IMG/VR virus record: IMGVR_UViG_3300027718_000001 | Span: 1 to 61,078 of that record | Reading direction: 5' to 3' (one strand) | Origin: a virus | Length of the DNA: 61,078 nucleotides | Part shown: piece after piece, positions 7,383 through 51,318 of the stretch | How positions within the stretch are numbered: position 1 is the stretch's first letter | Layout: every line of letters starts with the position of its first letter | Position numbers and translations under genes: made by a program | Notes under the pieces: generated by a model | The model's input: only the letters and a program-made list of their open reading frames with translations | Databases searched by the model: none | What the model was told of the DNA's origin: nothing

Positions 7383-7454
7383 ATGAATATAAATGTGAAC
7401 GTATAGATGAATATGAATATACACATGCAGGTGAACATGCATGTAAATATGGAG
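7383..7454. repeat. RTNNAN hexamer-periodic tract A (12 hexamers)
   Basis: atgaat ataaat gtgaac gtatag atgaat atgaat atacac atgcag gtgaac atgcat gtaaat atggag. T at position 2 in 12/12, A at position 5 in 12/12. Confidence 0.8.
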
Positions 7455-7463
7455 GGAAAAACA

Positions 7464-7703
7464 ATGAGTGAAAAGTCAATTATCAAGATGGAAGATCATA
7501 TAGGGATGCTTAATTTTTATAACGTTAGATATTTAAGAAGAACGAAAAAAGCTTTCTTTTTCATCGGTAAATGTCTTGTAACTGATGCTCTTGTAAGAAT
7601 TCGGGTTGAAAGAGATTCATTAGATACTTATTGGATCTATGAAGGTGAATCAGCTTATATGTACAGATATGAAGCGACTCTTCCAGAGAAGGTAACAGCA
7701 TAA
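7464..7703 (+). CDS. Hypothetical protein (start moved to MSEKS)
   Basis: SD ggaggg 7 nt upstream of 7464. The upstream part of track ORF 7407 is tract A. Confidence 0.55.
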   Translation: MSEKSIIKMEDHIGMLNFYNVRYLRRTKKAFFFIGKCLVTDALVRIRVERDSLDTYWIYEGESAYMYRYEATLPEKVTA

Positions 7704-7840
7704 TGTTTCTAGTTCATTTATGTGAGCCCTGTAATGTTGAGGAAATGACAACTGAAATAGAAGTAAAGCATAAGTGTCCTAAGTGTGGTTGTTTAACAGA
7801 AGATAGATGGATCGATGAAGAGAAGGAGATGGACTTATGA
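7703..7840 (+). CDS. 45-aa zinc-ribbon protein, below the track cutoff
   Basis: TAATG-coupled. Hand translation: MFLVHLCEPCNVEEMTTEIEVKHKCPKCGCLTEDRWIDEEKEMDL. Confidence 0.5.
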   Translation: MFLVHLCEPCNVEEMTTEIEVKHKCPKCGCLTEDRWIDEEKEMDL

Positions 7841-8364
7841 ATATTAACGGTACAGTAAATATTTCTATTAATGATTTTGATGAATTACGTGAAAAGGCTG
7901 AATGGTTGCAACAGTTAAGAGAAGAACTTTCTCAATGTTCTAATGTTGAATGTATCGAGGATGAAGAACACCCTCAACAGATTATTACTATTGATCGTGA
8001 CAGAGTAAAACAAGTTCTTATTGATTATGCTTTATATGGCACAATTCATGAAGAACTTTATGATGATGCAATTATCGTATTTGATAATGAAGAATTTGAA
8101 GGTTCAGATGAAATAGTAACTTGTCAGCATTGTTGTAAGAAATATCATGAAAAAGATGTGAACATGGTTGATTATGATCTAGATACTTGTATCCATTGTG
8201 AGAAAAAAGAATATGGTAATCCTAATGCCGGTTTTTATGAAAGAAAATTATTAGATGCTAATTATACACCAAAAGCTATTGAATCAATGATAGAAGCATA
8301 TGCAGATGCTAATGTGACTCGTGAAGATGTTTGTGAAGAAGAAGTAAATTCTTGGAGTTTATAA
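7837..8364 (+). CDS. Hypothetical Cys-rich protein
   Basis: CQHCCKKYH...CIHCEKK; ATGA-coupled to the previous ORF. Confidence 0.55.
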   Translation: MNINGTVNISINDFDELREKAEWLQQLREELSQCSNVECIEDEEHPQQIITIDRDRVKQVLIDYALYGTIHEELYDDAIIVFDNEEFEGSDEIVTCQHCCKKYHEKDVNMVDYDLDTCIHCEKKEYGNPNAGFYERKLLDANYTPKAIESMIEAYADANVTREDVCEEEVNSWSL

Positions 8365-8416
8365 GAGAAGGAGAGCATTAATGCTCTCTTTTTTTAAAAT
8401 ATAGGAGGGGTTTAGA

Positions 8417-8911
8417 ATGACTACACCAACTTGTCCTTATTGTGGAAGTATTGTTAATGTGCCTATTATGAAGGATGATCTGTCTTATTGTGAATTCTGC
8501 AATGATTATGTTCATTGTTCAGAAGATGGAAAGAGAAAGAGCCGTTATAATATTCGTGTGATGGATTATGAGTTTATGAGTATGGATCTTCCAGAACTAA
8601 AGGAGCTTCACCTTGTTAATCTGTTAGAATCTTTGAAAATAGCGAGAAAAGAAAGACAGAGTTATTTCGGTAATATGAGTGTCATTAAGAAAGCGGCTAC
8701 CCAGTCTGCAGAATTCAAAGAACACACGGTTACAGCTGGGAATGAATATGAAAGAGTTACTAAAAAGGTTCGTCAATTAGAAAATCTTATCTTAGATAGA
8801 ATGGGTTATATCCCTGCAAAGATTACTGATGAATTGATCATTAAAGTTCGTGAAAAGTGTGAAGATCCTAAGAATAAGACCATCATGAAAATAAAGAAAG
8901 TTGTGGTATAA
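8417..8911 (+). CDS. Hypothetical protein with an N-terminal zinc ribbon
   Basis: CPYCGS...CEFCNDYVHC; SD aggagggg. Confidence 0.55.
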   Translation: MTTPTCPYCGSIVNVPIMKDDLSYCEFCNDYVHCSEDGKRKSRYNIRVMDYEFMSMDLPELKELHLVNLLESLKIARKERQSYFGNMSVIKKAATQSAEFKEHTVTAGNEYERVTKKVRQLENLILDRMGYIPAKITDELIIKVREKCEDPKNKTIMKIKKVVV

Positions 8912-8937
8912 TTAGTGTACATTGTATTATGTTTTTC

Positions 8938-9590
8938 GCTCTCTAACTTCCCTATAGTTGGAGAGCTTTTTTCATTCTTTTCAAAGGATATATATGGTAT
9001 AATTATCTAGTCGATATAATAATAAATATCGATATGGTGGGGAGAGTGCTCAAACATTTAAGAAATCTTAATCTCAAAAATCAAAGTGGATAAGTCGTCT
9101 ATCTCTCTTTTTAGCATTATTCTCTTTGATAAGAGCCTATTTTCTGTGGTGGGAGAAAGGGCTCTTTTTTTGTTTAAATGTAAAGAAGGTGGGTATTAAT
9201 TAGATGTACAGTTATCTAAGTTTACCCACCTTTGTCTATAGTATGTTTCTATCAGACCCTTTATCTTTAGGATAGAGGGTTTTTCTATGTATAGAATATA
9301 AATGTTAGTAAAGACTATTTTTATACCCTCCGAGGGGTAGAATCTCATTAGACCTTCTATTTAGGGGCACTGGATAGAAGGTCTTTTCTTTTGTATTTAA
9401 AAAGTGATATACTTATATGGATTTCACACATACACATTTCGTGTACGTTTTTGCTGAGAGAAAGAGTAACTTTAGGGTTGCTCTTTTTTTCGTGAAATGG
9501 TATAATTTCCAAAAATAAAGTTTCTACATTAGTTTTGTAAGATAAAACTTATCGGAGAACCACCTTACTTCTGTAGGGTGGTTTTTTCGT
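8938..9590 (+). terminator. ORF-free array of about 7 plus-oriented terminator-like hairpins with at least two TGnTATAAT promoters (candidate small RNAs)
   Basis: Stem plus T-run units near 8938-8972, 9130-9172, 9255-9286, 9349-9400, 9426-9452, 9464-9492 and 9559-9588. tggtataat at about 8995-9003 and 9498-9506. Confidence 0.55.
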
Positions 9591-9613
9591 GCAAAAAAAA
9601 GAAGCAACCATGA

Positions 9614-9706
9614 TTATTTTGGTTGCCGTTTCTGGTGTTCTTTTATCGCTTGTTTATTTTTTGCATCTTGTGTGAAGATCATCATCATGATCATATCGAA
9701 TAACAT
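9614..9706 (-). CDS. 30-aa peptide at the end of the minus T4SS operon
   Basis: SD aaggagg. Peptide MLFDMIMMMIFTQDAKNKQAIKEHQKRQPK. Followed by a minus-strand terminator, caacca...tggttg plus T run. Confidence 0.35.
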   Translation of the reverse strand: MLFDMIMMMIFTQDAKNKQAIKEHQKRQPK

Positions 9707-9719
9707 TTATATCACCTCC

Positions 9720-10127
9720 TTATTGAAAGGTTAACTTCCATTTCCCTTCTTCTTTCACTAGGTCATAAGGTTTTATTTCAATGCTTCCATCTTCATTAGT
9801 AACCTTTACATCTATAGTCGCTGTTTGTCCGTTAATCTTCACGGTATCTTCTAGAGGATCAACCTTTTTATAATAACCGGCTTCTCTCTTTATGCCTTCT
9901 GAAATCGTTCCTGCAAGCCATGTACCGTTTTTATAATATTGAACAACCTCTGCTGCTACATATTCTTTCGCTTGATCAAGTTCACCCTTTTTAGCATTAT
10001 CGTAAAAAGCGGTAATAGAACTACTTGGATCATTATTTGTTTGAGCTTCAGCAAAGGCGAAGTATGAAGCCCCGCCTATGCCTGTTGCTAATGATAAAGC
10101 TATGATTGTCTTTTTAATCTTATTCAT
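9720..10127 (-). CDS. Secreted NTF2-like/DUF4878-like protein (possible VirB8-type scaffold)
   Basis: Signal peptide; C-terminal EEGKWKLTFQ; location next to the VirB6-like gene. Confidence 0.4.
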   Translation of the reverse strand: MNKIKKTIIALSLATGIGGASYFAFAEAQTNNDPSSSITAFYDNAKKGELDQAKEYVAAEVVQYYKNGTWLAGTISEGIKREAGYYKKVDPLEDTVKINGQTATIDVKVTNEDGSIEIKPYDLVKEEGKWKLTFQ

Positions 10128-10141
10128 GAATTATCCTCCTA

Positions 10142-10999
10142 TTATTTCGCCATAGGTATTTTTGTAATTCGTGAAGCGGCATATTTCATAACCGCAATCT
10201 TTCCTGCGCCGTTAGCGGCTCCTACAACTGTTTTACCAGCTCCAGATGAATAGATGAAAGTTCTAAGGTATTTAGGACCAACAATTAAAACGATGATTAA
10301 ACCACAAGCCATGATCAATTCATTTAGATCTTTACCATTACCAATTTGATTTAATATGAGAGATAAAACAGTTAATTGAAAAGCTTGTGTGAAGATTGTA
10401 GAAATTACTTCACGCCACCAGATAGGCCAGATATTCATTTCTTCATTTACAATAGTAATTCCAGCAATCGGTGCTCCTATAAATAAGATAGCTAATTCAG
10501 CTTGTCGAATAACGTATTGAATCGCTAGGATCAAATAAAGAATTACGATAACGAATGATGCAAAAGTAAGAGCTATATTTGATGTCACTGGATTTAAAAT
10601 AAAATTAGAAAATCTATCAGTGTCGAGACCTTGCTTTAAAAGAGCTTTACAATAAACGTTATTAAGTTTTAATAAACCTTGTGTCATGATGATTGGAGCG
10701 CCACATGCTAGGAATACACCTAAAAATGATTTAACAACGATTTCAGAAGCTGAACGGCTAACGTTACCACTAAAACCATTAAAATAGTATCTAATAACGT
10801 TGTAACTTAAAAACAGACTACATAAAGTAATGGCTAATGGAATCATCCATTCAGACATTGTACCTACATATCCTTTTTCAAAAGATGTAGGTTTTAAAAG
10901 GTATATTTCTAACCAATGCCAAGCGGCATCAGCCATAGCATCAATCAGTTGTTTCAAAAGGTCTGTAAGCCACTCTATAGGGCTTTTAAATGGGTTCAT
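10142..10999 (-). CDS. Polytopic membrane protein, VirB6/TrbL-like
   Basis: About 6 predicted TM segments; sits between the T4CP and VirB8-like genes. Confidence 0.5.
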   Translation of the reverse strand: MNPFKSPIEWLTDLLKQLIDAMADAAWHWLEIYLLKPTSFEKGYVGTMSEWMIPLAITLCSLFLSYNVIRYYFNGFSGNVSRSASEIVVKSFLGVFLACGAPIIMTQGLLKLNNVYCKALLKQGLDTDRFSNFILNPVTSNIALTFASFVIVILYLILAIQYVIRQAELAILFIGAPIAGITIVNEEMNIWPIWWREVISTIFTQAFQLTVLSLILNQIGNGKDLNELIMACGLIIVLIVGPKYLRTFIYSSGAGKTVVGAANGAGKIAVMKYAASRITKIPMAK

Positions 11000-11045
11000 T
11001 TGTTGTGTTCCTCCTTATTATAACCTAAAGTTTGGGTCAATATAC

Positions 11046-11060
11046 GTGTATCAGACTAAA
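11046..11060 (-). promoter_or_regulatory. TTTAGTCTnATAyAC motif copy
   Basis: gtgtatcagactaaa on the plus strand, upstream of the minus-strand gene 10999. Confidence 0.55.
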
Positions 11061-11101
11061 TTTATATAAAATAGTTCTTAAGTTTTGGATATGAGACTAA
11101 G

Positions 11102-13336
11102 TTAAACCTTATCTAGATCACCATATTCATCAGCAGGAACAGTTTTCTTTTTCCGTTTAGAACGTGGTTTAGATTCTTGTTTCATTTCTGCTTGCTCATG
11201 TTCTGATAATGGTGGTTCTTCCATTAGGAAAGCATCAGGTGGAAGAGTTGGATAATCAGCATCATCAAAATTATTAATTGGTTGTTCTTCTGGAAGTAGG
11301 GCAGGATCTAGAATGTTCAATTGAATTGTTGAATCTTCTTGTTTAGGTTTCTTTTCTCGTTTCTTAGCTTCTTTTTCAGCACCTTCATTAAGAGCTTCAA
11401 CAAATTCAGTTTCAACAGATTTTTTCTCCCTCTTCTTATTTTCTTTTTGAGCACGTTCTTCTTTTGCTTTCTTCAATTGATATTCAGGATCAGCAGAGTT
11501 AATAATCATTTCACTGTTATCACCGAAATCAGCAAGATCTAAAGGTTTATTCCCATTCGCTTCAAATAGTTTCTTAATTAATTCTCTAGGTTGGAATACA
11601 TCATATTCTGTACGTTCTGGAAAAGGGAATTTAAAACGGCTTATTGGTTCACCTAGTAGAGAATTCAATTCATCAATTTCATGTAACCATGCTTTTCTAA
11701 CTAACATAGGCATTTTAGTTCTCATTAAGACTATTAATGTATCATCATCTAGTCTTTGAAGATCCTCAGCCATCATGAGCTGTTTACCTGTAAAGCTTAA
11801 TGATGAACTTTCAGAAGATCCATTCTTACCAGAAGAATTTGATTCACTATCAATTTGAATCGTTGTTCGTCCTATCATTTTAGCGAAGTATTCAGCCGAT
11901 TCAGTGTTGTTAGCTCCTAGATAGATACGAGTATCACAGTTATCTATAATTTCTTCTGCAAGATCTTGACCCCATCTATGCCTTAATTGTCCTAAAGATT
12001 GAATAACAAGCATTACACTCATACCATAAGATCTCATTGTACTTAAACGTTCTGTAAATTGAGGTAAGCGACCAATGTTACAAAATTCATCAATCAAAAA
12101 TTTAACCTTAACAGGAAGTTTATTATTATTGTGATCAGCTACATGATAAAGTTCACCAAACATTTGATCAAAGAAGGTACTGATTAAAGGTCTAAATCGT
12201 GCTTCTGCAATTGGCATGATAACGAATAGAATTACTTTTTTATGTGCTAGGTCATGAAAGTTAAAATCATTTGTATAGGTGAAATCACATACTTCTGGAT
12301 ATTTCCATAAATCCATTGTTACCGAAGCGGTTGTAAAAACGTCTGCTGCTGTTTTTCCTCTCAATTTACTAATAGCTTGATAGTAGGCTCTTTTCGCTAT
12401 ATGGGTATCTGGTAAGCTTAGATATAGGAAATGAATGTGTTCAAATGAAGAAGTAAGTAATTCATATACACTTCCCATATGTTGCTGTTCTGGCTTCAAT
12501 ACATATTTCACATACAGGATAAGAGCAGATAAGAGTGATTTCTCAGCCTTTCCCCAGAAGTCAGATTGTTCTTTATTGCCTGCTGTAGCATTAGAAACAA
12601 TCGTTTCAACTATTTTATTAGCATCACTAGGTTTTCTAATGTAGCTTAGACATTCATAGCGTATAGAATATTCAAGTTCACTAAAATTAGCTACTATGAC
12701 TTCAAAACCTTGTAATCTCTTAATCTCAGCGCAAGATTCTAGCAATTCGCCTTTCGGATCAGTCACCACTATTGATCTATCAGTTATATTAACGATATTC
12801 GGTTTAATTAATCCTTGTGTTTTACCTGTACCTGCACCACCGAAAACGGCTATATTCTTATTCTTTTTTGTTTCTTCATTTAAAAGGATAAGTTTTTTCT
12901 TATTGTATCGGGCTAAGATGATAGCGCCAGATTCTAGATCATCGGTTATATCTCGTTTATCAAATATATCTGATTTTGTAGCCCATCTTGTGTTACCGTG
13001 TGAATTGTATTCATGAGCATCTTCTGCTTGTTTCTTTTTCATATTCTTTAAGATATGCCATGAGAAGAAACCAACACCGACCAGGAAACATAAGGGTTGC
13101 ATATCCATATTTATATTGCCTAGTATCGTTTGAAATGGATGTTCTAATAATGGATGAAAAACATCACCTACACTCACATGAGAGGTATTTGTACCACTAT
13201 TCATAGATCTTGTTACATCTTTTAGATCTGTTAAAGGTTGTTTCAAACTAAGAGCAGTACCAAAAACGAATTCAGATAATCCACCCATGAAGATCCCTTT
13301 TGCTATTGCTGGCTTAAGTTCTTTTTTGATCCCCAT
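11102..13336 (-). CDS. virD4: Type IV coupling protein (VirD4/TraG family)
   Basis: N-terminal TM segments; Walker A FGGAGTGKTQG; Walker B-like FLIDEFCNIG; 744 aa with an acidic/Lys-rich tail. Confidence 0.85.
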   Translation of the reverse strand: MGIKKELKPAIAKGIFMGGLSEFVFGTALSLKQPLTDLKDVTRSMNSGTNTSHVSVGDVFHPLLEHPFQTILGNINMDMQPLCFLVGVGFFSWHILKNMKKKQAEDAHEYNSHGNTRWATKSDIFDKRDITDDLESGAIILARYNKKKLILLNEETKKNKNIAVFGGAGTGKTQGLIKPNIVNITDRSIVVTDPKGELLESCAEIKRLQGFEVIVANFSELEYSIRYECLSYIRKPSDANKIVETIVSNATAGNKEQSDFWGKAEKSLLSALILYVKYVLKPEQQHMGSVYELLTSSFEHIHFLYLSLPDTHIAKRAYYQAISKLRGKTAADVFTTASVTMDLWKYPEVCDFTYTNDFNFHDLAHKKVILFVIMPIAEARFRPLISTFFDQMFGELYHVADHNNNKLPVKVKFLIDEFCNIGRLPQFTERLSTMRSYGMSVMLVIQSLGQLRHRWGQDLAEEIIDNCDTRIYLGANNTESAEYFAKMIGRTTIQIDSESNSSGKNGSSESSSLSFTGKQLMMAEDLQRLDDDTLIVLMRTKMPMLVRKAWLHEIDELNSLLGEPISRFKFPFPERTEYDVFQPRELIKKLFEANGNKPLDLADFGDNSEMIINSADPEYQLKKAKEERAQKENKKREKKSVETEFVEALNEGAEKEAKKREKKPKQEDSTIQLNILDPALLPEEQPINNFDDADYPTLPPDAFLMEEPPLSEHEQAEMKQESKPRSKRKKKTVPADEYGDLDKV

Positions 13337-13605: not shown

Positions 13606-13607
13606 AT

Positions 13608-25034: not shown

Positions 25035-25190
25035 AACGGTAAGCGGAGCAAGGGCGGTTTTCCCTTGTGAGCATTAAGGAGTTGACACCCTTAACTATGC
25101 CCAAAACCTCTTGGCATTGAACAAACAACCGTTTGTTCCTGCCTACCGGCGAGGTAGCCCTTCCAAGATTGGAAGGGTTGGGTAGGTTGA
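25035..25190. other. GC-rich block of five consecutive stem-loops between convergent genes
   Basis: gggtgtcaac/gttgacaccc (10 bp), caaggg/cccttg, atgcc/ggcat, gaacaaac/gtttgttc (8 bp), cctacc...cccttcca/tggaaggg...ggtagg; no T run. Confidence 0.45.
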
Positions 25191-28494: not shown

Positions 28495-28523
28495 TTCACA
28501 AGCAGTAAAGAGTTTGCTATAAT
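28495..28523 (+). promoter_or_regulatory. parA promoter: operator-like TTCACAagcAGTAAA (28495-28509) plus extended -10 TGcTATAAT (28515-28523)
   Basis: Read directly. Confidence 0.55.
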
Positions 28524-28527
28524 TTAC

Positions 28528-28581
28528 ATGCATGTTCACATGCAGGAAAACATTCATATATAGATACATAATCACCTGCAT
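28528..28581. repeat. RTNNAN hexamer-periodic tract B (9 hexamers)
   Basis: atgcat gttcac atgcag gaaaac attcat atatag atacat aatcac ctgcat. Begins 5 nt after the -10 box. Confidence 0.7.
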
Positions 28582-28607: not shown

Positions 28608-29486
28608 ATGGCGAAAAAGGCGAAAGTTCTAGGCATTTTCAACAATAAAGGCGGAATTCTTAAGAGCTCGTTAACAAGTAATCTAGCGGCTTCATATGCT
28701 TTAAAAGGTCATAAGGTGTTAATTATTGATATGGATTCACAAGCTAATATGTCGCAGATCTTTGGATTGAATGCTGATATTTTTGATCCTAACATTTATG
28801 ACACATTGGTAAATGATGAACACCCTAAAAGAGCTATTATTAATGTGTATGATGAAATGCGTAAAAGACATGAAGATAACATAGATGTTCCTACGGTTTT
28901 AAAATCAGTTGATATGTTACCAAGTAATGATGATATGACGATGTTTGAAATCGATGTTTTAATGGACGAGGATTTTAAAGACACATATTTTAATTTATTG
29001 AGAAAAGTTATACGTCAAGTAGAATCAATCTATGACTATATTTTAATAGATAGTCCTCCTAATATGGGGATCTGTGCAGGAAATATTTTGACTGCTGCTG
29101 ATCGTGTTTTAATTCCATTTCATCCTGAAACGCTATCAAAACGTTCTTTGATGAAAACCATAAAAAGGGTGGGTAAATTTAAAAACAGTCTGAACCCAGA
29201 TTTAGAGATCTTAGGAATTGTAGGTACTAAAGTAAAAATGAATACTAAACAGCATAAGAAAAATCTCAAAGAAACGATTGAATATGCTAAAACTAAGGAT
29301 ATTCATTTTTTCAAAAACTATGTACCTGAAACGATTAAAGGGGCAGATGCAGTAGATGAAGAGTGTGTACCCGCAGTTCTCTCTTCAATCAAATTTAATA
29401 AAGAAATGAAGCGGTTAAAGGCTCATTACAATGATTTATTTGAAGAGATCTATGCGATGGAAGGAGAGATTGCTCATGTCAAATGA
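28608..29486 (+). CDS. parA: ParA/Soj-family partition ATPase
   Basis: Deviant Walker A FNNKGGILKSS; IIDMDSQAN; ILIDSPP. Confidence 0.85.
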   Translation: MAKKAKVLGIFNNKGGILKSSLTSNLAASYALKGHKVLIIDMDSQANMSQIFGLNADIFDPNIYDTLVNDEHPKRAIINVYDEMRKRHEDNIDVPTVLKSVDMLPSNDDMTMFEIDVLMDEDFKDTYFNLLRKVIRQVESIYDYILIDSPPNMGICAGNILTAADRVLIPFHPETLSKRSLMKTIKRVGKFKNSLNPDLEILGIVGTKVKMNTKQHKKNLKETIEYAKTKDIHFFKNYVPETIKGADAVDEECVPAVLSSIKFNKEMKRLKAHYNDLFEEIYAMEGEIAHVK

Positions 29487-29844
29487 TCCATATAGAGACG
29501 ATGAAACTAATCCTTATGATGAAACTAAGAAAAAGAAGAAAACAAAAGACACTGGTGTTAAAACACTTGATAGCTTAGTGGATAAAGAAGAAACGGAAGC
29601 GGCTAAAGATGAAGTTGCTGTGGCTACAGAAACAAAGAAAAAGCCAGCTAAAAAGAAAACGTCTCTAGACACGTATGGTCAGAAGAAACCACCTAAAGAA
29701 CCTGTGCACATTTTCTTTGATCCTGATGTTAAAAAGATTCTCATGCAGGAACAGAAAAAAAGGGGCCGAGGTTTTAAGAGTAATTATGTGAATGATCTTG
29801 TACGTAAAGAGTTTATAAAAGATGGCTTATTGCCAGAAGAATAA
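29476..29844 (+). CDS. Small Lys-rich centromere-binding partner (ParG/omega-like RHH C-terminus)
   Basis: Overlaps the parA end; SD ggaaggagag; C-terminal VHIFFDPDVKKILMQEQKKRGRGFKSNYVNDLVRKEF. Confidence 0.5.
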   Translation: MSNDPYRDDETNPYDETKKKKKTKDTGVKTLDSLVDKEETEAAKDEVAVATETKKKPAKKKTSLDTYGQKKPPKEPVHIFFDPDVKKILMQEQKKRGRGFKSNYVNDLVRKEFIKDGLLPEE

Positions 29845-30992: not shown

Positions 30993-31049
30993 TTGACCTA
31001 GCATTTCAGCATGGTATTATATTCATGCAAGAACTTTTCGTAGTGTAAA
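30993..31049 (+). promoter_or_regulatory. Promoter TTGACC-16-TGgTATTAT plus an operator-like site at 31035-31049
   Basis: Near-duplicate of the cassette at 31372-31430. Confidence 0.55.
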
Positions 31050-31057: not shown

Positions 31058-31129
31058 ATGAATATGAACATGAATCTTCATATGAACGTATACATGCAGG
31101 TTCATGTTCAGGTGAAGGAGAAGATGAAA
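31058..31129. repeat. RTNNAN hexamer-periodic tract C (12 hexamers)
   Basis: atgaat atgaac atgaat cttcat atgaac gtatac atgcag gttcat gttcag gtgaag gagaag atgaaa. Ends on the start codon of ORF 31129. Confidence 0.8.
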
Positions 31130-31996: not shown

Positions 31997-32068
31997 ATTC
32001 ACATGGTTGTTCTTATTCAGATAAATATGAAGGTTCACCTGCATGTGAATGTGCAGGTGAATATAACT
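31997..32068. repeat. RTNNAN hexamer-periodic tract D (12 hexamers; 10-bp hairpin ttcacctgca/tgcaggtgaa)
   Basis: attcac atggtt gttctt attcag ataaat atgaag gttcac ctgcat gtgaat gtgcag gtgaat ataact. Confidence 0.75.
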
Positions 32069-38356: not shown

Positions 38357-38385
38357 GAAAACCGTCCTGTGTGGCGGTTTTTTCA
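38357..38385 (+). terminator. Terminator closing the early/middle region
   Basis: aaaaccg...cggtttt plus a T run. Confidence 0.7.
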
Positions 38386-38397
38386 TTGTTTAATATC

Positions 38398-38499
38398 ATG
38401 TATGTGTACATGCATGTGCATGTAGATGTGTAGGAGCACATGTATAGATACATGCATGTTCATATAAATGAGAAGGAGAACGTTCACATGAATGTTTTC
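38398..38499. repeat. RTNNAN hexamer-periodic tract E (17 hexamers), directly before the late operon
   Basis: atgtat gtgtac atgcat gtgcat gtagat gtgtag gagcac atgtat agatac atgcat gttcat ataaat gagaag gagaac gttcac atgaat gttttc. Confidence 0.8.
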
Positions 38500-38524
38500 C
38501 TTTTTTTATGTTAAGGGGGATTTG

Positions 38525-39148
38525 ATGAAAGTTTTAACAAAGAAACTTGATGATCTTGTACCTGCACCATATAACCCACGAAAAAAGCTAAAGCCGGGCG
38601 ACAAAGAGTATGAAAAGCTAAGAAAGTCTATTAAAGAATTTGGGTATGCGGATCCGATTGTATGGAATGAAAAAACAGGTTATGTAGTCGGAGGGCATCA
38701 AAGAATAGCGGTACTAAAAGATTTAGGCTATGAAGAAGTTGATGTATCTGTGGTGGATCTTGAACCATCTAAAGAAAAAGCATTAAACCTAGCATTAAAT
38801 AAGATTTCTGGTACATGGGATGAAGAACTATTAAAAGATTTATTAATCGAAATTGATACAGGTGAATTTGATATTGAGCTAACAGGTTTTGATGATGGGG
38901 AAATTGAAAAGCTTATGAACAAATTTGCTGATGATGAAGTTGAACGTCCAGAAGTGGAATTCACCGAGGAATTGATGGAAGAACATAATTATATTGTTCT
39001 CTATTTTGACAATTCGATGGATTGGCAAGTTGCAAAAGATAAATTTGGAATCTCAACTAAAGCGGCTATAGATAGCCGAGAAGGTTATGAAAGAAAGGGG
39101 ATAGGGCGAGTAGTCAAAGGATCTGACATACTTGACCGAATGAATTAA
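38525..39148 (+). CDS. ParB-like nuclease (ParBc/Srx) domain protein without a fused methyltransferase
   Basis: LVPAPYNPRKK...FGYADPIVWNEKTGYVVGGHQR. Confidence 0.7.
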   Translation: MKVLTKKLDDLVPAPYNPRKKLKPGDKEYEKLRKSIKEFGYADPIVWNEKTGYVVGGHQRIAVLKDLGYEEVDVSVVDLEPSKEKALNLALNKISGTWDEELLKDLLIEIDTGEFDIELTGFDDGEIEKLMNKFADDEVERPEVEFTEELMEEHNYIVLYFDNSMDWQVAKDKFGISTKAAIDSREGYERKGIGRVVKGSDILDRMN

Positions 39149-39888
39149 TGAAGTATCAAGTGTTTATTATCTCTTATAAGCGAGCGGGGCAAGTAACAAG
39201 TGACAAGGTATTTAGAAATGCAAAGATTGTCATTCCTGAAAGTCAGTATGAAGAGTATAAGAAACATGATTATGCAAATGGCTGTGAATTGTTACCGATC
39301 CCAGATGAAGGTGATGGAAACATAGTTAAGAAGCGGAATTATATCATGGATCATTTTTCTGATATGTGTGATGGAAACATGGCGATTGTAGATGATGATT
39401 ATGAATACATTGGAATGGTTGAAAACCGTAAACCAATTAGGTTAGATGTGGATCAAGTGGATAACTTGTTGATGAATGGCTTTCAGATGTGCAGAGATCT
39501 TGGAACTGTTATGTGGGGAATAAATGTACAGTCAGATCCTAAGTTTTATAGAGAATATGCACCTCTTTCTATGTTGTCGGTTTGTCTGGGCCCATTTCAG
39601 GCATTCTGCAGTAATCCGTTAAGATACGATGAAAGAGTTTATTTGAAAGAAGATTATGATATGAGCCTACAAGTTCTACAGAAATATCATAAGATCCTAC
39701 GATTCAATAAGTTTCATTATGTTGTGAATCATTTCAATAAAGCGGGTGGGGTTGTCTCTTACCGCACTAAGAAAGCGGAATTAGAGCAACTAGAAATCAT
39801 GGCTAAAAAATGGGGTTCAAAGGTTGTTAAATATGATGTTAACAAAGATGTTGACCCGAAAGTAAAAGTACCATTGAAAGGAATCTAA
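39148..39888 (+). CDS. GT-A-like (DxD) putative glycosyltransferase-like protein
   Basis: N-terminal beta-strand FIISYKR; AIVDDDYEY; TAATG-coupled to the ParB-like gene. The functional call is weak. Confidence 0.3.
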   Translation: MKYQVFIISYKRAGQVTSDKVFRNAKIVIPESQYEEYKKHDYANGCELLPIPDEGDGNIVKKRNYIMDHFSDMCDGNMAIVDDDYEYIGMVENRKPIRLDVDQVDNLLMNGFQMCRDLGTVMWGINVQSDPKFYREYAPLSMLSVCLGPFQAFCSNPLRYDERVYLKEDYDMSLQVLQKYHKILRFNKFHYVVNHFNKAGGVVSYRTKKAELEQLEIMAKKWGSKVVKYDVNKDVDPKVKVPLKGI

Positions 39889-41768: not shown

Positions 41769-44102
41769 GTGGCATTTTGGGATTGGTTAAGCTTCAATAA
41801 GAAACGAATAGACTATGATATTCGCCAAATTGTAAATGCTTCGGCAAGGGCTTCTATTCGTCCAGTTAATACAGGTGGAAGACAAACGTATGACAAGTGG
41901 GAACAGCCCTTCAATTGGTATGATATGAGCGTTATTCCTAGAGATTCATATAAAAGTAAGGACGTTATGGAAAGTCTTAAAATCATAAGGGATCTTTCAC
42001 CAGATGCATCAATGGCTATATGGAATTTCCTTCGTCTCGCCAACTCAGGACATGAGGTTGAAGTGTATACCAAAAATGGAAAGGTCGATAAGAAAGCGAC
42101 TGAACTATTAAATGAAAAGGCTAAACAAGTCGGTAAGTTATATGGTGGGGGTACTGATCAATTAATTAACGTTCTGTTATTAACTTCCTTTACACAGGGA
42201 GCTATCGCCTTAGAAGTTGAAATACAGGAAGGATTGAAGGATATAGAAGATATTCATGCTGTAGATCCTTCTACCTTAGATTTCAAAAAGAATAAGGAAA
42301 CAGGCGTAATTGAGTTGGTACAGAAGCAGATTGATGGAACGTTTAAAGTATTGAATCCAGAAACAGTCTTCTTCTACCCTTTTGACCCAGAGATTTCTGA
42401 CCCTCACGGAAGGAGCCCTATTCTACCCGTGTTGCAGATTGTCTTCTTTCAAATTGAGATTCTAAAGGATCTTAGGAAAGTGGTACATCACCAAGGACAT
42501 AGACGTTTTGATATTAAAGTGTTGGAAGAATCGATAGTTGAAAACATGCCCGATGATATTAAATATCAAGGCCCAGAAGCTGTTAGATCTTATGTACAAG
42601 ATTATATTCAACAGATTCAGGATCAAATGAATGATCTAGAACCAGATGCAGATTTCTTTCACACGGATTCAGTGGAGATAGGAATGGCAGGGGGTAATTC
42701 TTCTTCTGGCAACTTAGATATTTCTAGGGTTATCGATGTTATTAATCAGCAGATAGTTACAGGATTGAAGCAGTTACCTATTTTGTTAGGTCGAAATGAA
42801 GGAACAACAGAAACGCACGGAACGATTCAGTGGCAGATTTATGTTAAGGGTATTGAATCCATTCAAAGAGGTATTAAACGCCTTTTAGAACGTGCTTACA
42901 ATGTTGTTTTACAGATCAATGGAATTCAAGGAAGTGCTGTTTTAACCTTTGATGAAATTCAAGTTACTGACCGTAAATCTGATGCAGAAGCTGAACAGAT
43001 TGAAACCAATACTAAGATTCTTCAATACCAACAAGGTTGGATAGATAACGATGAAGCGGCTTTAGAAATGGTCAATCATAAGGCTGTTAGTGAGCCAATT
43101 AGTCAAAGTTCACCTGCATATGAACCTGCACCTACAGATTCAGGTAAAGATTCAGGTACAGATGAAGGTGGAGTTACACAAGAAGATGATCAAACTTCTA
43201 GAAGTCTAAAAAAAAAAGACTATTTTTCTCTAAGAGTTAAAAAAGATGAATTTGTTTCTGAATTAAATGTAAGTTGGGCTAATGATTTAGCAAAGCTTAC
43301 CACACGAACCAGAAACGCCTATTCTCGCTTTTTAAATGATCAAAGAGATAAATATATTAAGAGACTTGAAAACGCAGGGAAACTACCTACAACAGTTCTG
43401 ACAGATATGCGTTCTTTGAAGTCTTTTTGTCGTGAGGATGAAACACCTTCACCTCCCCATTCTTTCCAGTCTTGGGTGATGGCAAACATTATATATGATT
43501 CTGAACAACAAATTGATCAAGTTAGGGATCTTGCCAGAGAGTGGATGATGGAAGCGGCTATTATGTCAGGATCAGCAACTTTAGAAGATCTAGATGTAGG
43601 TATGTTTTTTAACGAACGTGATACACGCCTTTTACGTTGGATTCAAGAAAGATCTTTAAGAGAAGCCCAGTTAATTCAAGGGGTTACAGATGAATATGTT
43701 CTACAGACATTGTGGGATGTTGTCTATGATGGGGATTTGACTATAAAAACGGCTGTTGATGAATTGAGCCGTGTTTATGCTTTTAGTCCTTCTCGTGCTA
43801 CAACCATTGCTCGAACTGAAATTATTTCTGCTTCTCGTAGTGGTCAGTATTTCGGAGATCAGCAGAGTGGAATAGTTATAGGCAAGCGGTGGAGATCAGC
43901 CTTACAGGAACGAACTAGAGCAGGTCATAGAGGGGCTAATGGTCAAGTCGTGGCATTTGATGAACCGTTTGTAGTCGCTAATGGAAGTGGTCAAATGGAA
44001 TATCTAATGTTCCCATCTGATAGTTCACTAGGCGCATCGGCATCAAATTGTATAAATTGCCGTTGCTGGTATGAACGTATCTTAGAGGGAGAGGAAATGT
44101 AA
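41769..44102 (+). CDS. Portal protein fused to a Mu F / SPP1 gp7-like head-morphogenesis domain
   Basis: Position after terL; C-terminal ATTIARTEIISASRSGQY...RTRAGHRGANGQVV...CINCRCW; GTG start. Confidence 0.7.
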   Translation: MAFWDWLSFNKKRIDYDIRQIVNASARASIRPVNTGGRQTYDKWEQPFNWYDMSVIPRDSYKSKDVMESLKIIRDLSPDASMAIWNFLRLANSGHEVEVYTKNGKVDKKATELLNEKAKQVGKLYGGGTDQLINVLLLTSFTQGAIALEVEIQEGLKDIEDIHAVDPSTLDFKKNKETGVIELVQKQIDGTFKVLNPETVFFYPFDPEISDPHGRSPILPVLQIVFFQIEILKDLRKVVHHQGHRRFDIKVLEESIVENMPDDIKYQGPEAVRSYVQDYIQQIQDQMNDLEPDADFFHTDSVEIGMAGGNSSSGNLDISRVIDVINQQIVTGLKQLPILLGRNEGTTETHGTIQWQIYVKGIESIQRGIKRLLERAYNVVLQINGIQGSAVLTFDEIQVTDRKSDAEAEQIETNTKILQYQQGWIDNDEAALEMVNHKAVSEPISQSSPAYEPAPTDSGKDSGTDEGGVTQEDDQTSRSLKKKDYFSLRVKKDEFVSELNVSWANDLAKLTTRTRNAYSRFLNDQRDKYIKRLENAGKLPTTVLTDMRSLKSFCREDETPSPPHSFQSWVMANIIYDSEQQIDQVRDLAREWMMEAAIMSGSATLEDLDVGMFFNERDTRLLRWIQERSLREAQLIQGVTDEYVLQTLWDVVYDGDLTIKTAVDELSRVYAFSPSRATTIARTEIISASRSGQYFGDQQSGIVIGKRWRSALQERTRAGHRGANGQVVAFDEPFVVANGSGQMEYLMFPSDSSLGASASNCINCRCWYERILEGEEM

Positions 44103-44106
44103 AACC

Positions 44107-46078: not shown

Positions 46079-46099
46079 ATTTAAAAGGAGGTAAGGAGA

Positions 46100-47161: not shown

Positions 47162-47178
47162 TAGGGGAGGGTTAAAGA

Positions 47179-47457: not shown

Positions 47458-47463
47458 TGATCT

Positions 47464-47868
47464 ATGTTCTTAACATTGGAAGAATTAAAAGCCCTAACCA
47501 CCTTTGATGAGGTGGCAGGGCTTGATAATGATTCGTTAAATGGGTATATGTTGCGTGCTGATGCTTGGATCAGAAGGGCTACGAAACGTAATGATCTATT
47601 AAACACAACAAATGAATCTATTCAACAAGATTTAAAAATCGCCACTCTTTTGTTAGTTGAGTATATTTGGTACTGGGATCTTCCCGAGACAAAAGAACAA
47701 GCTATATCTCATGATGATAGTGTGAAGTTAGGCTCTTATACTTTTAATAAAGATAAGGCTAGGATTGGTGAGGAAACAGGGAACGATGAATTAGATGGAA
47801 TACTAAGATCATTGAGATATTCGCCTAAAAGTGGTGCTTTCTTTGTTGTTAGGAATGGTGATTCATGA
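47464..47868 (+). CDS. Head-tail connector (gp6-like)
   Basis: LTLEELKALTTF...LNGYMLRADAWIRRAT. Confidence 0.55.
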   Translation: MFLTLEELKALTTFDEVAGLDNDSLNGYMLRADAWIRRATKRNDLLNTTNESIQQDLKIATLLLVEYIWYWDLPETKEQAISHDDSVKLGSYTFNKDKARIGEETGNDELDGILRSLRYSPKSGAFFVVRNGDS

Positions 47869-48221
47869 GGTTTAAATCATTATTGAATCATAGATGCACT
47901 TTGTTAATAGGTGGGGAAGTAACAGGTCAAGATGAATATGGAAGGGATATTGTAACAGACATTGAGAACATGAATGTGCCGTGCAAGTTAGATGAACCTA
48001 AATTTCGTTCTGTACCCGATGATACAGGAACGGATATAGTCATAGATTCTATGTTATTTCTTCACCCTAAGTTTCAAGTGGATTTAGGTACAACCATTTT
48101 AAATATCGTGGATCTGGAAGGAAACCCTGTTATTCAGGGTTCTTTTTCTGTTGTCGATATTTCGCCCATTTATTCATTGAAGAAGTTACATCATTATGAG
48201 CTTACATTGAGAAGGAAGTGA
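47865..48221 (+). CDS. Head closure/head-tail adaptor
   Basis: HRCTLL...GQDEYGRDI pattern; overlapping start. Confidence 0.55.
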   Translation: MRFKSLLNHRCTLLIGGEVTGQDEYGRDIVTDIENMNVPCKLDEPKFRSVPDDTGTDIVIDSMLFLHPKFQVDLGTTILNIVDLEGNPVIQGSFSVVDISPIYSLKKLHHYELTLRRK

Positions 48222-48225
48222 GATT

Positions 48226-48633
48226 ATGGCCAGAAGACAGAATGATGTTCAATTTAGTATTGAAATGGACAGAAGAACGTTTGAATGGTTTAACCGTGTA
48301 GCTCCTTCTAAGTTGAAAGAAGCAAGAAATAAGGCTGTTGAAGCGGCAGGAATGGTATTCGCAGATACAGCAAAAGCCATTACTACAGAAGAGGATCATA
48401 TAGATACAGGGCTTTATGTTAATTCAATTGGTTATTCAACAGGTACGCCATCAAACCCTATATATGATATGACATCAGGGGCAAGTGAAACAAACTTAGA
48501 TATAGGTGCTGATGTTCGTTATGCCGAGCCTTTAGAAAAACGGTATGGAATCATGGCAAGGGGCTTAGATCGTGGGAAAGAAAGAATGGAACGTGTGGCA
48601 GAAACACAAGTTAAAAGGATCTTAGGTTTATAG
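48226..48633 (+). CDS. HK97 gp10-family tail component
   Basis: IDTGLYVNSIG motif. Confidence 0.55.
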   Translation: MARRQNDVQFSIEMDRRTFEWFNRVAPSKLKEARNKAVEAAGMVFADTAKAITTEEDHIDTGLYVNSIGYSTGTPSNPIYDMTSGASETNLDIGADVRYAEPLEKRYGIMARGLDRGKERMERVAETQVKRILGL

Positions 48634-48843
48634 ATGGAGTATAGACCATCACCACCACCTTCTTCTAGACCCTATTATAAAGCGCCTTGTATGCATAGAT
48701 ACCGTCATTTAGATACCAGTAAGTTTAAGGTATCTGGTGAGAATATGAGATTAAAATGGAAAGTCGTAGACCGTTATTATTGTGAAAAATGTCTAACTTC
48801 TAAAGTGAAAGAAAGTCATTTTGAAATAGGTGAGTACAGATGA
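48634..48843 (+). CDS. Hypothetical small protein
   Basis: ORF abutting its neighbours. Confidence 0.4.
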   Translation: MEYRPSPPPSSRPYYKAPCMHRYRHLDTSKFKVSGENMRLKWKVVDRYYCEKCLTSKVKESHFEIGEYR

Positions 48844-49196
48844 TCGATTATCTGGATGTAGTGCCACTTGTTAGAAAGTTTATAGATGATTTGATTGATG
48901 AAAAGGTCTATGGATCTTCATTTCCTTCAACGCCTGTTTTACCTGCTGTTCTGGTTCGTAATATGGGTGGAAGTGATTATACTCGACTTCAATTATTAGC
49001 AAGGGCTAACGATGATATAACAGCGATGAAGCTTGTTATAAAGGCTATGAATTTGTTAGAACGTTATGGTGCTAATATTGTCGGTTTGCGTGTTTTATGG
49101 ATTGAAAAAGAAACGGCTCCTATTGCCTCTAAAGATGATGATACAGGCAAGTTTGAAGCTTGGTGTTATATGAGGATGGAGCATTTAGAACAATAA
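48840..49196 (+). CDS. Tail completion/terminator protein (DUF3168-like)
   Basis: Position; VPLVRKFI...VYGSSFPS...LPAVLVRNMGG. Confidence 0.5.
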   Translation: MIDYLDVVPLVRKFIDDLIDEKVYGSSFPSTPVLPAVLVRNMGGSDYTRLQLLARANDDITAMKLVIKAMNLLERYGANIVGLRVLWIEKETAPIASKDDDTGKFEAWCYMRMEHLEQ

Positions 49197-49215
49197 ATTA
49201 TAGGAGGTTTTAGGA

Positions 49216-49473
49216 ATGGCTGAGAGCAAGAAATCTTCAAATGAAAGCACGACTAAGACTACCCTTACAAAAGTTAAAGTGATTGGACCAGTTGATCAAA
49301 ATAGTGGTTCTACTATTCTTCGTTTTGAACGTGATGCAGAAAGTAAAGATGCTATTGATATTCTCCCTGGTCAAACTCTCACAGTTGGGGGAAATAGTGG
49401 AGATATTACTAAGGCAGAAGCAGAACGTCTTTTAGCTTATGACAGATGGGAATTTGAGGGGGTTGAGGAATAA
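49216..49473 (+). CDS. Hypothetical tail-module protein
   Basis: ORF with SD taggagg. Confidence 0.45.
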   Translation: MAESKKSSNESTTKTTLTKVKVIGPVDQNSGSTILRFERDAESKDAIDILPGQTLTVGGNSGDITKAEAERLLAYDRWEFEGVEE

Positions 49474-50306
49474 TGGCAGATATTTATCGTGTTAATAGTA
49501 ATAATATTGTCGGCGGTGCAGGTCGTTTAGTCGTGAAGCCTTACGATGGCACATTCCCAGAGAGTATTGAAGAGGTCATGAGCCTTACAGATCCTTATGA
49601 TTTAGTTTCTCCGTGGAGTGATGTAGGGGCTACAACAGATGGAATCACAACTACACGAGGCTATGATTCTGATGACTTTGAAGTTGATCAGAAGGTAGGA
49701 AGTGTAGATACAGATATTACTGGATGGTCGCATTCGTTAGAAACAAGTTTAGCAGAAAATACGGTTGAAAATCGTAAATTAGCTTTAATTGGTGGAACGA
49801 TTATTGAATCTCCCCCAACACTTGGAACGGCTACAACTATGACTGCTTCAAGTGCTATCAATGCTACGATTATTGCCGTTACTTCGTCTTCTGGAATTAC
49901 AGCAGGATCTTTTGTGCAAATTTCAGAAGGTGGAAAGGTCGAGACAAAACAAGTAAATCGTGTACAGGGAAACACTTTGTATTTAGAAACGCCATTAACT
50001 AATGCTTATACTACAGCAGGTTCGGTTCGTCCTATCACTAAATTAGGAAGTCGCCGTATTGGATATGGTACACCACAGAATATTCCTGAATACACGGTTG
50101 CTCTTATCAGTCAGAAGAAAGATGGATCTTTATACATGGCAGTTATCCGAAAATGTAAGGTTGCGGGTGATGATAAAGATCAATCATTTGAAAAGGGAAA
50201 AAGAACTATTCCGTTGAATCTCACAGCCTTCCCTGTTGATGGAAATGGGGTAAGCCAAGAAGACAACGTTTATTATGAAATTGAACAAGTAATTTCTACT
50301 CCCTAG
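49473..50306 (+). CDS. Major tail protein
   Basis: Position upstream of the chaperone pair and tape measure; 277 aa. Confidence 0.65.
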   Translation: MADIYRVNSNNIVGGAGRLVVKPYDGTFPESIEEVMSLTDPYDLVSPWSDVGATTDGITTTRGYDSDDFEVDQKVGSVDTDITGWSHSLETSLAENTVENRKLALIGGTIIESPPTLGTATTMTASSAINATIIAVTSSSGITAGSFVQISEGGKVETKQVNRVQGNTLYLETPLTNAYTTAGSVRPITKLGSRRIGYGTPQNIPEYTVALISQKKDGSLYMAVIRKCKVAGDDKDQSFEKGKRTIPLNLTAFPVDGNGVSQEDNVYYEIEQVISTP

Positions 50307-50619
50307 TGTCGCAGGAGAATATTTAGAAATTAGTCTTACTCAGGATTCTACTGGGGTCTATTATTCTCCTGCTATCAACGTTAATGATTCAAGTGAAGTA
50401 TCTATTATTCTTAGAGCTACCGAAAATGGAACTGTTGATGTAGATGTTTCTACAGATGGGGTTTCATGGTCTGATTATGGAAGTATGGATCTTATAAGGG
50501 ATCGTAGAGCTTCTTACCAGATGCCGATGGGTAGTAATAAATTTATCAGATATAGCGTAACTACATCAGGAACCATTTCAACGTCTTATATCTTTATGGG
50601 GGGTTATGTAAATGGCTGA
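50305..50619 (+). CDS. Start-codon-less +1-frame extension of the major tail protein (candidate CCC-UAG shifty-stop recoding; beta-sandwich-like, about 104 aa)
   Basis: The frame is open from the base after the T of TAG. There is no ATG/GTG/TTG in the first ~58 codons. Peptide SVAGEYLEISLTQDSTGVYYSPAINVNDSSEVSIILRATENGTVDVDVSTDGVSW... Confidence 0.5.
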   Translation, partial: SVAGEYLEISLTQDSTGVYYSPAINVNDSSEVSIILRATENGTVDVDVSTDGVSWSDYGSMDLIRDRRASYQMPMGSNKFIRYSVTTSGTISTSYIFMGGYVNG

Positions 50620-51238
50620 TTTATATGCTAATTTTGGTGAATTGAGAAAAGCATATAAAATGAGGACTCAATTTGATCTTAGATTGAAAAAAGGTTCTTC
50701 TGGGATCATCTATCTAACTCCCCACGGCGGAGGGATCGAGACAGGATGTTCTGAATTGTCCGAGTTCTCAGCAGATGCTACAGATTCTTATTTCATTTTT
50801 GATGCTAAATTGAGTACAGGTAATAGTGATATGCATATTACTTCTACTCATTTTGATGAACCTAATGCACGTAATTTAGTAGCTCAACATGATATAGCTG
50901 TAAGTTATCATGGGTATTCAGATAGTAGCGTGAAAAATACGAAAGTAGGCGGGCTAGATGAACAGTTACGTAATCTCATAGGTGAAGAGTTTACAGCTGC
51001 GGGCATACCGTGGGAACAGGAACCGTTTGAGTCAAGCATTGCAGGTGCTGAACCAGATAATATTTGTAATGTTACACGTAGAGGTATGGGTGTACAGTTG
51101 GAGATGTCAACTTTACAGCGTACCTCTTTTTTTGGCACGAATACAGCGGCACAAAGAAGGAATACAATTCTTCCCGAATTCACTAATTATATGAATGCAG
51201 TGAAACGTGCCGTAGCAAGAAGAAAAGCTTTATTATGA
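50612..51238 (+). CDS. Poly-gamma-glutamate hydrolase (PghP/DUF867-like) inserted in the tail module
   Basis: LTPHGGGIETGCSE...MHITSTHFDEP...VSYHGY...VGGLD...NICNVTRRGMGVQLEMS. Confidence 0.7.
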   Translation: MADLYANFGELRKAYKMRTQFDLRLKKGSSGIIYLTPHGGGIETGCSELSEFSADATDSYFIFDAKLSTGNSDMHITSTHFDEPNARNLVAQHDIAVSYHGYSDSSVKNTKVGGLDEQLRNLIGEEFTAAGIPWEQEPFESSIAGAEPDNICNVTRRGMGVQLEMSTLQRTSFFGTNTAAQRRNTILPEFTNYMNAVKRAVARRKALL

Positions 51239-51318
51239 AGATTCATATGAAGGTGAATGTGTAGGATTACCTGCATGTTCACCTTCATGTATATATGAAG
51301 ATGGAGGTATATATGGAA
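51235..51318. repeat. RTNNAN hexamer-periodic tract F (14 hexamers; 11-bp hairpin atgaaggtgaa/ttcaccttcat)
   Basis: atgaag attcat atgaag gtgaat gtgtag gattac ctgcat gttcac cttcat gtatat atgaag atggag gtatat atggaa. Confidence 0.8.

Follow-up and report, generated by a model that had tools for sequence, protein, structure and literature searches.

Which molecule reads the hexamer tracts of a 61,078-bp virus genome? The genome in question, IMG/VR record IMGVR_UViG_3300027718_000001 (analysed over its entire length, positions 1 to 61,078, and termed the window in the following), is a complete metagenome contig with near-identical copies in three other samples. It contains long runs of contiguous hexamers with T at position 2 and A at position 5, many of which reach up to the ribosome-binding site of a gene. 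An initial annotation had listed eight such tracts, A to H, and had offered three candidate roles: a translational operator for a multimeric RNA-binding protein resembling TRAP, hairpins for RNA processing or stability, or arrayed DNA sites for a phage regulator such as an ArpU-like protein. Our analyses make it probable that the tracts are arrays of double-stranded DNA sites for the ribbon-helix-helix (RHH) partner (29476-29844) of the ParA ATPase encoded on the same replicon, i.e., that they form part of a type Ib partition system. The third of the earlier proposals would thus be right in kind, as it assumed DNA sites for a regulator of the element, while the ArpU-like protein is a poor candidate for the binder.

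Array grammar and the par operon

A recount reproduced the earlier hand-made numbers exactly: T occupies position 2 in 107 and A occupies position 5 in 106 of the 116 hexamers in the eight tracts. Both occur together in 97 of the 116 (84%), compared with 11% of all hexamers in the window. As had been anticipated, the tracts are outliers. In a scan of eight consecutive hexamers for R1, T2 and A5 they score 22-24 out of 24, while all of 30 Markov-2 shuffles stayed at or below 20, and the motif (VTKMAB)x5 has six exact matches in the window versus none in 100 shuffles. A period scan had been recommended, and a de novo search over periods 4 to 12 indeed singled out the tract sites with period 6, along with its multiple 12. 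All eight tracts were recovered, but the list proved incomplete: a ninth array, I (43102-43173), is as strong as the eight others, and a mini-array of three hexamers was found at 17613-17630. In addition, the hexamer register reaches one or two units further in array A (from 7377), array B (from 28522) and array E (from 38392). Altogether, the window holds nine arrays of 10-24 units and roughly 130 hexamer sites.

The RTNNAN unit described earlier is real, but its fuller consensus is R-T-K-M-A-Y (IUPAC code). With GA (35 units), TC (28) and GC (16) as central dinucleotides, the unit is a pseudo-palindrome that is used in both directions about equally often. Stop codons in the hexamer register, which had been held against conserved leader peptides, are present within the tracts. 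It had also been stated that G and H lie inside open reading frames (ORFs) in another codon register; this was confirmed and can be put more generally. Four arrays are ORF-internal (G, H, I and the mini-array); in each of them, even in H on the opposite strand, unit position 1 coincides with codon position 2, and this register yields linkers rich in Asp, Glu, His, Pro and Ser. The equal use of both orientations and the fixed open register within ORFs support the earlier view that the constraint operates at the level of the nucleic acid.

Array B (28522-28581, 10 hexamers in both orientations) resides at the head of the par operon. A predicted promoter of the sigma-A type (28495-28523, plus strand; TTCACA-17-TGnTATAAT, 11/12, the best in the region from 23 to 39 kb) is followed by parA (28608-29486, plus strand), which encodes a Walker-type ATPase of 292 amino acids (aa) assigned to PHROG 164, ParA-like. 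As its AAA_31/CbiA domain begins at residue 6 (E = 9e-38), this ParA is devoid of a helix-turn-helix (HTH) domain at its N-terminus. The adjoining ORF (29476-29844, plus strand) overlaps the end of parA and specifies a protein of 122 aa, the candidate centromere-binding protein. Array B stretches from the last bases of the -10 element over the expected transcription start and the parA leader to the Shine-Dalgarno (SD) sequence of parA, and is our candidate for a combined par operator and centromere.

For the 122-aa protein itself no family match was obtained, with no significant match in Pfam and nothing in a profile search of PDB sequences. Its N-terminal tail is disordered, of low complexity and rich in Lys and Glu, and its C-terminus reads EPVHIFFDPDVKKILMQEQKKRGRGFKSNYVNDLVRKEF. 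In type Ib partner proteins, this tail has a conserved arginine finger by which the ATPase is activated. Here, a conserved N-P-[FYW] motif at the very N-terminus precedes the Lys-rich part, and the Arg7 present in the window protein is not retained throughout its clade. The tails of the homologs vary in length and sequence and have low predicted local distance difference test (pLDDT) values. A strand-helix-helix domain spans approximately residues 74-116 and includes the putative ribbon EPVHIFFD with His78. A model of the full-length protein was mostly disordered and a fold search with it uninformative. The model of the domain, built with 33 homologs, has a pLDDT of 92 and consists of an extended segment followed by two helices. 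Its best matches in the PDB are Arc in complex with its operator (1par) and the RHH domains of NikR and PrpA, with template modelling (TM) scores of 0.5-0.6. Several homologs show sub-threshold matches to Pfam families of the RHH clan, and the family profile can be aligned with Arc in register (pairwise E = 0.0017).

In type Ib systems, the centromere-binding protein combines a divergent, flexible N-terminal tail with a C-terminal RHH domain of beta1-alpha1-alpha2 topology (PMC5016525). Gene order, protein size, disordered tail and the predicted C-terminal RHH domain match this defining layout (PMC5016525): a ParA without HTH domain is followed by a small downstream gene, the product of which has a tail and a predicted RHH domain, and repeats cover the par promoter. 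We propose that each hexamer would serve as a unit site, with the two-stranded beta-ribbon of an RHH dimer reading the T-K-M-A core. Contiguous units, in whichever orientation, would be coated cooperatively, as omega coats its heptads and ParG its boxes, and the N-terminal tails of the array-bound dimers would be presented to ParA. Array B would act as an autoregulatory operator that represses the par promoter and, at the same time, as a centromere. Further centromere capacity would come from the other eight arrays, which may also act as operators or roadblocks.

Distribution of the arrays among related replicons

Homologs of the RHH protein are detectable in 39 cases, all of them from Bacillales, and every homolog that could be placed directly follows a ParA gene. 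Scans of GTDB and IMG/VR returned zero relatives of the RHH protein and only four distant ParA loci, which are without arrays. About ten other Bacillales replicons with ParA-RHH homologs carry period-6 arrays at their par promoters, with R-T-T-A-A-Y as the unit. Note that these relatives were scanned with a matrix for unit positions 1, 2, 5 and 6 only, such that the core was left free. The arrays occur in replicons of Peribacillus, Brevibacillus, Bacillus cereus, Rossellomorea and in a replicon from a Bacillota metagenome-assembled genome, which otherwise differ in their initiators and in their phage and conjugation modules. Within these replicons, arrays are located at the par promoter or SD, in the part of the RHH gene that codes for the N-terminus, and just after this gene. 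In the Rossellomorea plasmid (L138) the array constitutes the 17-bp spacer of the promoter TTTACA-17-TATAAT (11/12), and in the Brevibacillus plasmid (L134) it overlaps the promoter TTGTTA-17-TATAAT (10/12). As those parts of the arrays cover promoter elements, they are untranscribed and can act only as DNA.

In other clades, arrays encode low-complexity N-terminal tails of the RHH proteins that are rich in Asn, Asp, Ile and Val (for example, ATT AAC GTT AAT for I-N-V-N). Such tail-encoding arrays are present at L134 19824-19871, L137 10076-10117, L138 8849-8959, L139 10049-10210 and L135 19710-20000, which means that the RHH gene itself carries its presumed binding sites. Each clade keeps to one fixed open codon register for its ORF-internal arrays. 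The other clades always use the other open register, because with their TA core the register of the window would contain TAA stops.

Closer relatives of the window allow syntenic positions to be compared. In L141 and L142, whose portal proteins are 74-77% identical to that of the window, arrays are kept at the positions of I and F. An array at the E position is also found in L003 and L141, and L142 has one just after the DUF7694 gene. A Peribacillus relative has an array syntenic with G at its VirB4/lysozyme junction (L131 4539-4586). The syntenic arrays of L141 and L142 follow the same grammar with different unit sequences, and positions 2 and 5 account for only one of the 22 substitutions seen when syntenic arrays are compared (P = 0.0016); that one creates T2. 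The picture changes in two relatives without the ParA-RHH pair. Bacillus phage CUBc25, whose portal-MuF protein shares 53% identity with that of the window, also encodes RepA, RecU and a sigma factor, but has no arrays, including at the positions of E, I and F, and its top scan score is lower than the median of the shuffles. Compared with the CUBc25 protein, array I corresponds to an insertion of 16 residues. Likewise, the Priestia megaterium element L143 is syntenic with the window (portal 64% identical), has no ParA-RHH pair after RepA, and contains no arrays in 22 kb, including the sites equivalent to E, I and F. Absence of the tracts next to conserved flanking genes had been named in the initial annotation as an argument against their significance. 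Here, such absence coincides with the lack of the par module, and since arrays are missing where this module is missing despite the same flanking genes, we conclude that the tracts go with the par module.

Furthermore, the unit core varies together with the presumed DNA-reading ribbon. In the window and L005, from the diverged relative L005/L141, there are 0 TA versus 85 GA, TC or GC cores, while the other lineages have 59 TA versus 8 GA, TC or GC cores. The arrays of L142, from Priestia aryabhattai, likewise have GA, TC or GC cores. The ribbon of the family can be written as x-[T/K/V]-[G/A]-[I/F/C]-[Y/F/H]-[F/L/M]-[D/E], and only in the window clade (6 proteins) is the Gly/Ala position occupied by His. 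Because this position alternates with conserved hydrophobic residues of the ribbon, it should face the major groove according to the known geometry of RHH ribbons. This makes His78 a candidate single-residue determinant of specificity and, hence, of incompatibility. A Tyr-to-Phe exchange in the ribbon was also considered as a clade-specific feature and was rejected, as Peribacillus proteins with TA-core arrays have Phe as well.

DNA sites, RNA elements and other explanations

In a fundamentally different scenario, the tracts would act in RNA, either as TRAP-like translational leaders or as hairpins for mRNA processing, stability or termination. We regard this as unlikely. Transcription is probable for the six arrays that separate a stop codon from the following SD, and it is true that seven tracts abut an SD. 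However, this vicinity arises largely because intergenic arrays sit in short gaps (74-276 nt), of which they take up 39-100%. A reader specific for single strands would not be expected to leave both unit orientations equally common, and arrays of the TRAP type would be strand-specific and limited to transcribed sequence beside the SD, whereas those described here are neither and occur within ORFs as well. The arrays of relatives extend over -35, spacer and -10, that is, over promoter elements 5' of the transcription start. CUBc25 and L143 have the same downstream genes without the tracts, and the hexamer core co-varies with a residue of the DNA-binding ribbon. These observations speak against the proposed TRAP-like translational operator, although no search was directed at a TRAP-like protein. 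Hairpins as such need a more differentiated treatment. The arms quoted for F and D in the initial annotation do exist, but for seven of the nine tracts the fold energy is unchanged when the order of the hexamers is shuffled (z from -1.6 to +0.6) and there is no strand bias, so that the hairpins of these seven follow from the self-complementary unit. At the gathering threshold, Rfam 15 contains no family that matches any tract; both of its matches in the window lie outside the tracts.

For E and F, a hairpin role is possible. The sense strand folds much better than the antisense strand in three diverged elements, with differences of -19.0, -9.5 and -6.7 kcal/mol for E and of -12.2, -12.5 and -16.8 kcal/mol for F, and several of these hairpins are more stable than hexamer-order shuffles (z from -2.4 to -3.6). 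The last hexamers of array E build a terminator-like hairpin with a U7 run (38470-38505, plus strand) that ends about 20 nt 5' of the first late gene's ATG and is kept in L003, L141 and L142. A second terminator-like hairpin (38357-38382, plus strand) is located 5' of array E, so that the two bracket it, which suggests control of the late genes by read-through or antitermination. In array F, a sense-strand hairpin of 19 bp (51247-51288) has counterparts in L141 (19602-19655) and L142 (19533-19604). These hairpins of 19-22 bp are kept in structure and not in sequence, depend on G-U pairs and are better by 12-17 kcal/mol on the plus strand. Taken together, this suggests an RNA-level layer at E and F.

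If the tracts are DNA sites, their reader could also be another protein of the element: the ArpU-like/DUF7694 regulator, the ParB_N-domain protein, the HTH repressor, or the RepA_N initiator with the arrays as iterons. Array E is indeed flanked by the genes for the DUF7694 and ParB_N-domain proteins, and phage regulators often have multiple dispersed sites. Nevertheless, we judge such a reader to be improbable, because ParA and the RHH protein alone are common to the array-bearing replicons. Their initiators differ (RepA_N, Rep3, primase-polymerase, HTH_36) and a DUF7694 or ParB_N gene is often not nearby. L143 possesses RepA_N, repressor, RecT/RecU, terminase and portal and yet has no arrays, and the same holds for CUBc25 with its RepA and sigma factor. 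Moreover, in each lineage the arrays are concentrated around the parA-RHH operon, namely at it, within it and after it. RepA iterons and ParB_N/DUF7694 sites were set aside, together with clusters of restriction sites, as the arrays travel with ParA-RHH across differing replicons. Very improbable, finally, is an origin without function, in which the tracts would be hexanucleotide microsatellites made by slippage or low-complexity coding sequence that is periodic by chance. Replication slippage can expand tandem arrays of short units, and a scan of IMG/VR for (VTKMAB)x7 gives, among the matches listed, many ordinary single-unit repeats. The latter, however, consist of one to five distinct units in one orientation, again among the matches listed, while the window arrays are degenerate and mixed. 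Protection of positions 2 and 5 from substitution, persistence of arrays at syntenic sites with altered sequence, their absence from close relatives without the par module, and a single grammar shared by nine arrays and differing from that of the sister clade are all at odds with a lack of function.

Several points weigh against the arrays being DNA sites for the RHH protein. The connection between protein and arrays rests on association, and we infer protein binding, its stoichiometry, partition activity and repression. The RHH assignment of the 122-aa protein is a prediction only; Foldseek E-values for the domain are weak (0.7-8), which its length of 55 residues accounts for. The pitch of 6 bp is smaller than that of omega (7 bp) and ParG (8 bp), so that one dimer per hexamer is a tentative assumption. 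The correlation of core and His is in effect one evolutionary switch, such that a Fisher P value overstates independence. A Siminovitchia contig has just a short sub-threshold run, seen by eye, and the homolog on an Alicyclobacillus plasmid is without T2/A5 arrays; judging from a recurrent GATATC, this relative may use a third unit. A convincing sigma-A promoter is present beside B and C only, which leaves an operator role elsewhere unsupported, and the sense-strand hairpins of E and F, kept in three elements, are unexplained by DNA sites.

Beyond segregation, it is conceivable, though speculative, that the RHH protein and the approximately 130 hexamer sites form a genome-wide coat. The arrays at the starts of operons, before the late genes and in ORF linkers would then be switchable roadblocks or silencers that couple plasmid maintenance to the control of conjugation-like, anti-restriction and late phage genes, E and F would carry an additional layer of RNA hairpins made of the same hexamers, and one switch from Gly/Ala to His would have gone along with a concerted rewriting of all arrays. 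If true, the His substitution with concerted rewriting of the arrays would be a natural example of a switch in partition and incompatibility specificity. If transcription is under the control of these scattered arrays, the partition protein would govern the plasmid state of a temperate phage as a global regulator.

Known partition systems and the genomic setting of the arrays

The tracts had not been recognized as a described element. Their kind is known, however, and corresponds to the repeat centromeres and operators of type Ib systems (PMC9499535, PMC3130281). The omega protein of plasmid pSM19035 from Streptococcus pyogenes occupies runs of 7-10 adjoining repeats of 7 bp, in direct or inverted orientation, that overlap three promoters; a minimum of four contiguous units is required (PMC9499535). 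Both systems comprise a small RHH protein, a Walker-type ParA and several arrays of contiguous repeats, which in the case of omega serve as operators and centromeres (PMC9499535). Unlike the non-palindromic 7-bp unit of omega, WATCACW, the unit described here has 6 bp and is pseudo-palindromic, and the arrays are longer (10-24 units), more numerous (nine) and distributed over all modules of the phage-plasmid and into ORFs. The 122-aa protein has no match to an omega family of Pfam up to E = 10 and no profile alignment with omega. ParG of TP228, whose sites are the centromere parH and the operator OF, likewise belongs to the RHH proteins and has a flexible tail at its N-terminus. It cooperatively coats 8 + 12 degenerate boxes, direct or inverted. 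Its short invertible boxes take up about 100 bp 5' of parFG, and it represses this operon and forms the segrosome (PMC3130281). Its 4-bp ACTC boxes are separated by 4-bp AT spacers, resulting in a pitch of 8 bp at a single locus, whereas the arrays of the window have a pitch of 6 bp without spacer and are dispersed. Relationship to ParG is limited to a weak in-register profile alignment (E = 0.07), with no Pfam match.

Dispersed partition sites as such have a precedent in the linear phage-plasmid N15, which has several separate centromere sites for SopB, IR1-4 (PMC7205306). The N15 system differs in being of type Ia, with an HTH-type ParB and single inverted repeats in place of short-repeat arrays for an RHH protein. 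Its Sop system is reported by Ravin et al. 2008 (cited in PMC11652158) to facilitate late gene expression. The par2 system of the Escherichia coli plasmid pB171, of type Ib, has the centromeres parC1 and parC2, which are clusters of repeats of about 6 bp for its ParB; unlike the arrays described here, these flank the par operon only. KorB of RK2 is a partition protein and at the same time a global regulator with about a dozen dispersed OB operators, but it belongs to the HTH proteins and its sites are single 13-bp palindromes.

In plasmid-prophages of Bacillus, pairs of ParA-Ib and RHH adaptor have been listed, with their centromeres undescribed (PMC8026635), and centromeres of partition systems from Bacillales phage-plasmids apparently have not been described so far. 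What is new is the hexamer unit with its distribution across the family, together with a derived class of specificity that goes with His78. The arrays are also novel in their number (nine), in their length (10-24 units), in their spread over the whole genome and in being embedded, with a fixed register, in coding linkers. An R-T-T-A-A-Y family centromere together with a derived R-T-K-M-A-Y clade provides a simple rule for finding such centromeres and operators. Moreover, the arrays exemplify how protein-binding DNA can be written into coding sequence, in whichever frame stays open and where a linker is tolerable.

The window is a phage-plasmid. Its genes encode a RepA_N initiator, ParA, an ArdC-like protein, VirB4-like and SLT proteins, a dUTPase, an HTH repressor, YqaJ/RecT/RecU and a full head-tail module. 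Syntenic relatives are Peribacillus plasmids and Priestia contigs; a megablast search with the 26-33 kb region gave no match in phage and plasmid collections. Array A (7377-7454, 13 hexamers) fills 72% of the gap between an ORF at 6981-7355 and the gene starting at 7464. Array H (17106-17201, 16 hexamers) is contained in a minus-strand ORF (16783-17979; 398 aa, no family match), where it encodes a segment rich in Glu, Pro and His, and the mini-array (GTTCAT ATTCAC GTTCAT) follows in the same ORF and codon register. The largest array, G (23491-23634, 24 hexamers), forms the C-terminal tail of the gene for a VirB4/TraG-like ATPase (21567-23636) and adjoins the start of an SLT hydrolase gene (23633). 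Array C (31058-31129, 12 hexamers) lies about 30-100 nt 3' of a predicted promoter (30993-31020; TTGACC-16-TGnTATTAT) and runs into a start codon at 31129, and array D (31997-32068, 12 hexamers) lies 5' of the gene for the ArdC-like protein (32106). Array E (38392-38499, 17-18 hexamers) follows the terminator at 38357-38382 and precedes the first late gene, which encodes the ParB_N-domain protein (ATG at 38525). The 12 hexamers of array I (43102-43173) encode the linker between portal and MuF parts in the ORF at 41769-44102, and the 14 hexamers of array F (51235-51318) occupy the entire gap between the end of a gene for a poly-gamma-glutamate hydrolase (51238) and the ATG of a tail-module gene (51313). 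A promoter scan revealed no convincing sigma-A promoter near A, D, E and F.

Some further features of these loci deserve mention. Just 3' of array I, an A10 run is present at 43208-43217 of the window, where portal and MuF form a single ORF of 777 aa. L141 (about 11425-11433) and L142 (about 11452-11460) have A9 instead, and their portal and MuF proteins are encoded by separate ORFs (490 and 498 aa for portal, 277 and 227 aa for MuF, respectively). The run may mark a place of slippage or frameshifting, or result from a homopolymer sequencing error. The poly-gamma-glutamate hydrolase gene before array F (50612-51238, plus strand; Pfam E = 2e-52) is part of the tail module and is found at the same place in L141, L142 and L143. 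The first late genes (38525-39888 in the window, 5799-8138 in L141) encode proteins with a ParB_N domain and of the TAGT family (PF20691), plus a radical-SAM protein in L141, a gene set that suggests a DNA-modification pathway. Downstream of array G, a full-length group I intron (23961-24182, plus strand; Rfam RF00028, 85 bits, E = 2.5e-20) sits between an ORF with an SLT domain (23633-24091) and an ORF with SLT_2 and NlpC/P60 domains (24306-24995). The gene for a cell-wall hydrolase of the type found in type IV secretion systems thus appears to be split by the intron. It is followed by the RNA motif 'Bacillus-plasmid' (RF01691) at 25029-25098 on the plus strand (44.5 bits, gathering score 31). 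Finally, several replicons with the ParA-RHH family, and likewise the control phage CUBc25, encode arbitrium receptors of the AimR type (L137 6647-7777, L138 1817-2665 and L140 37373-38518).

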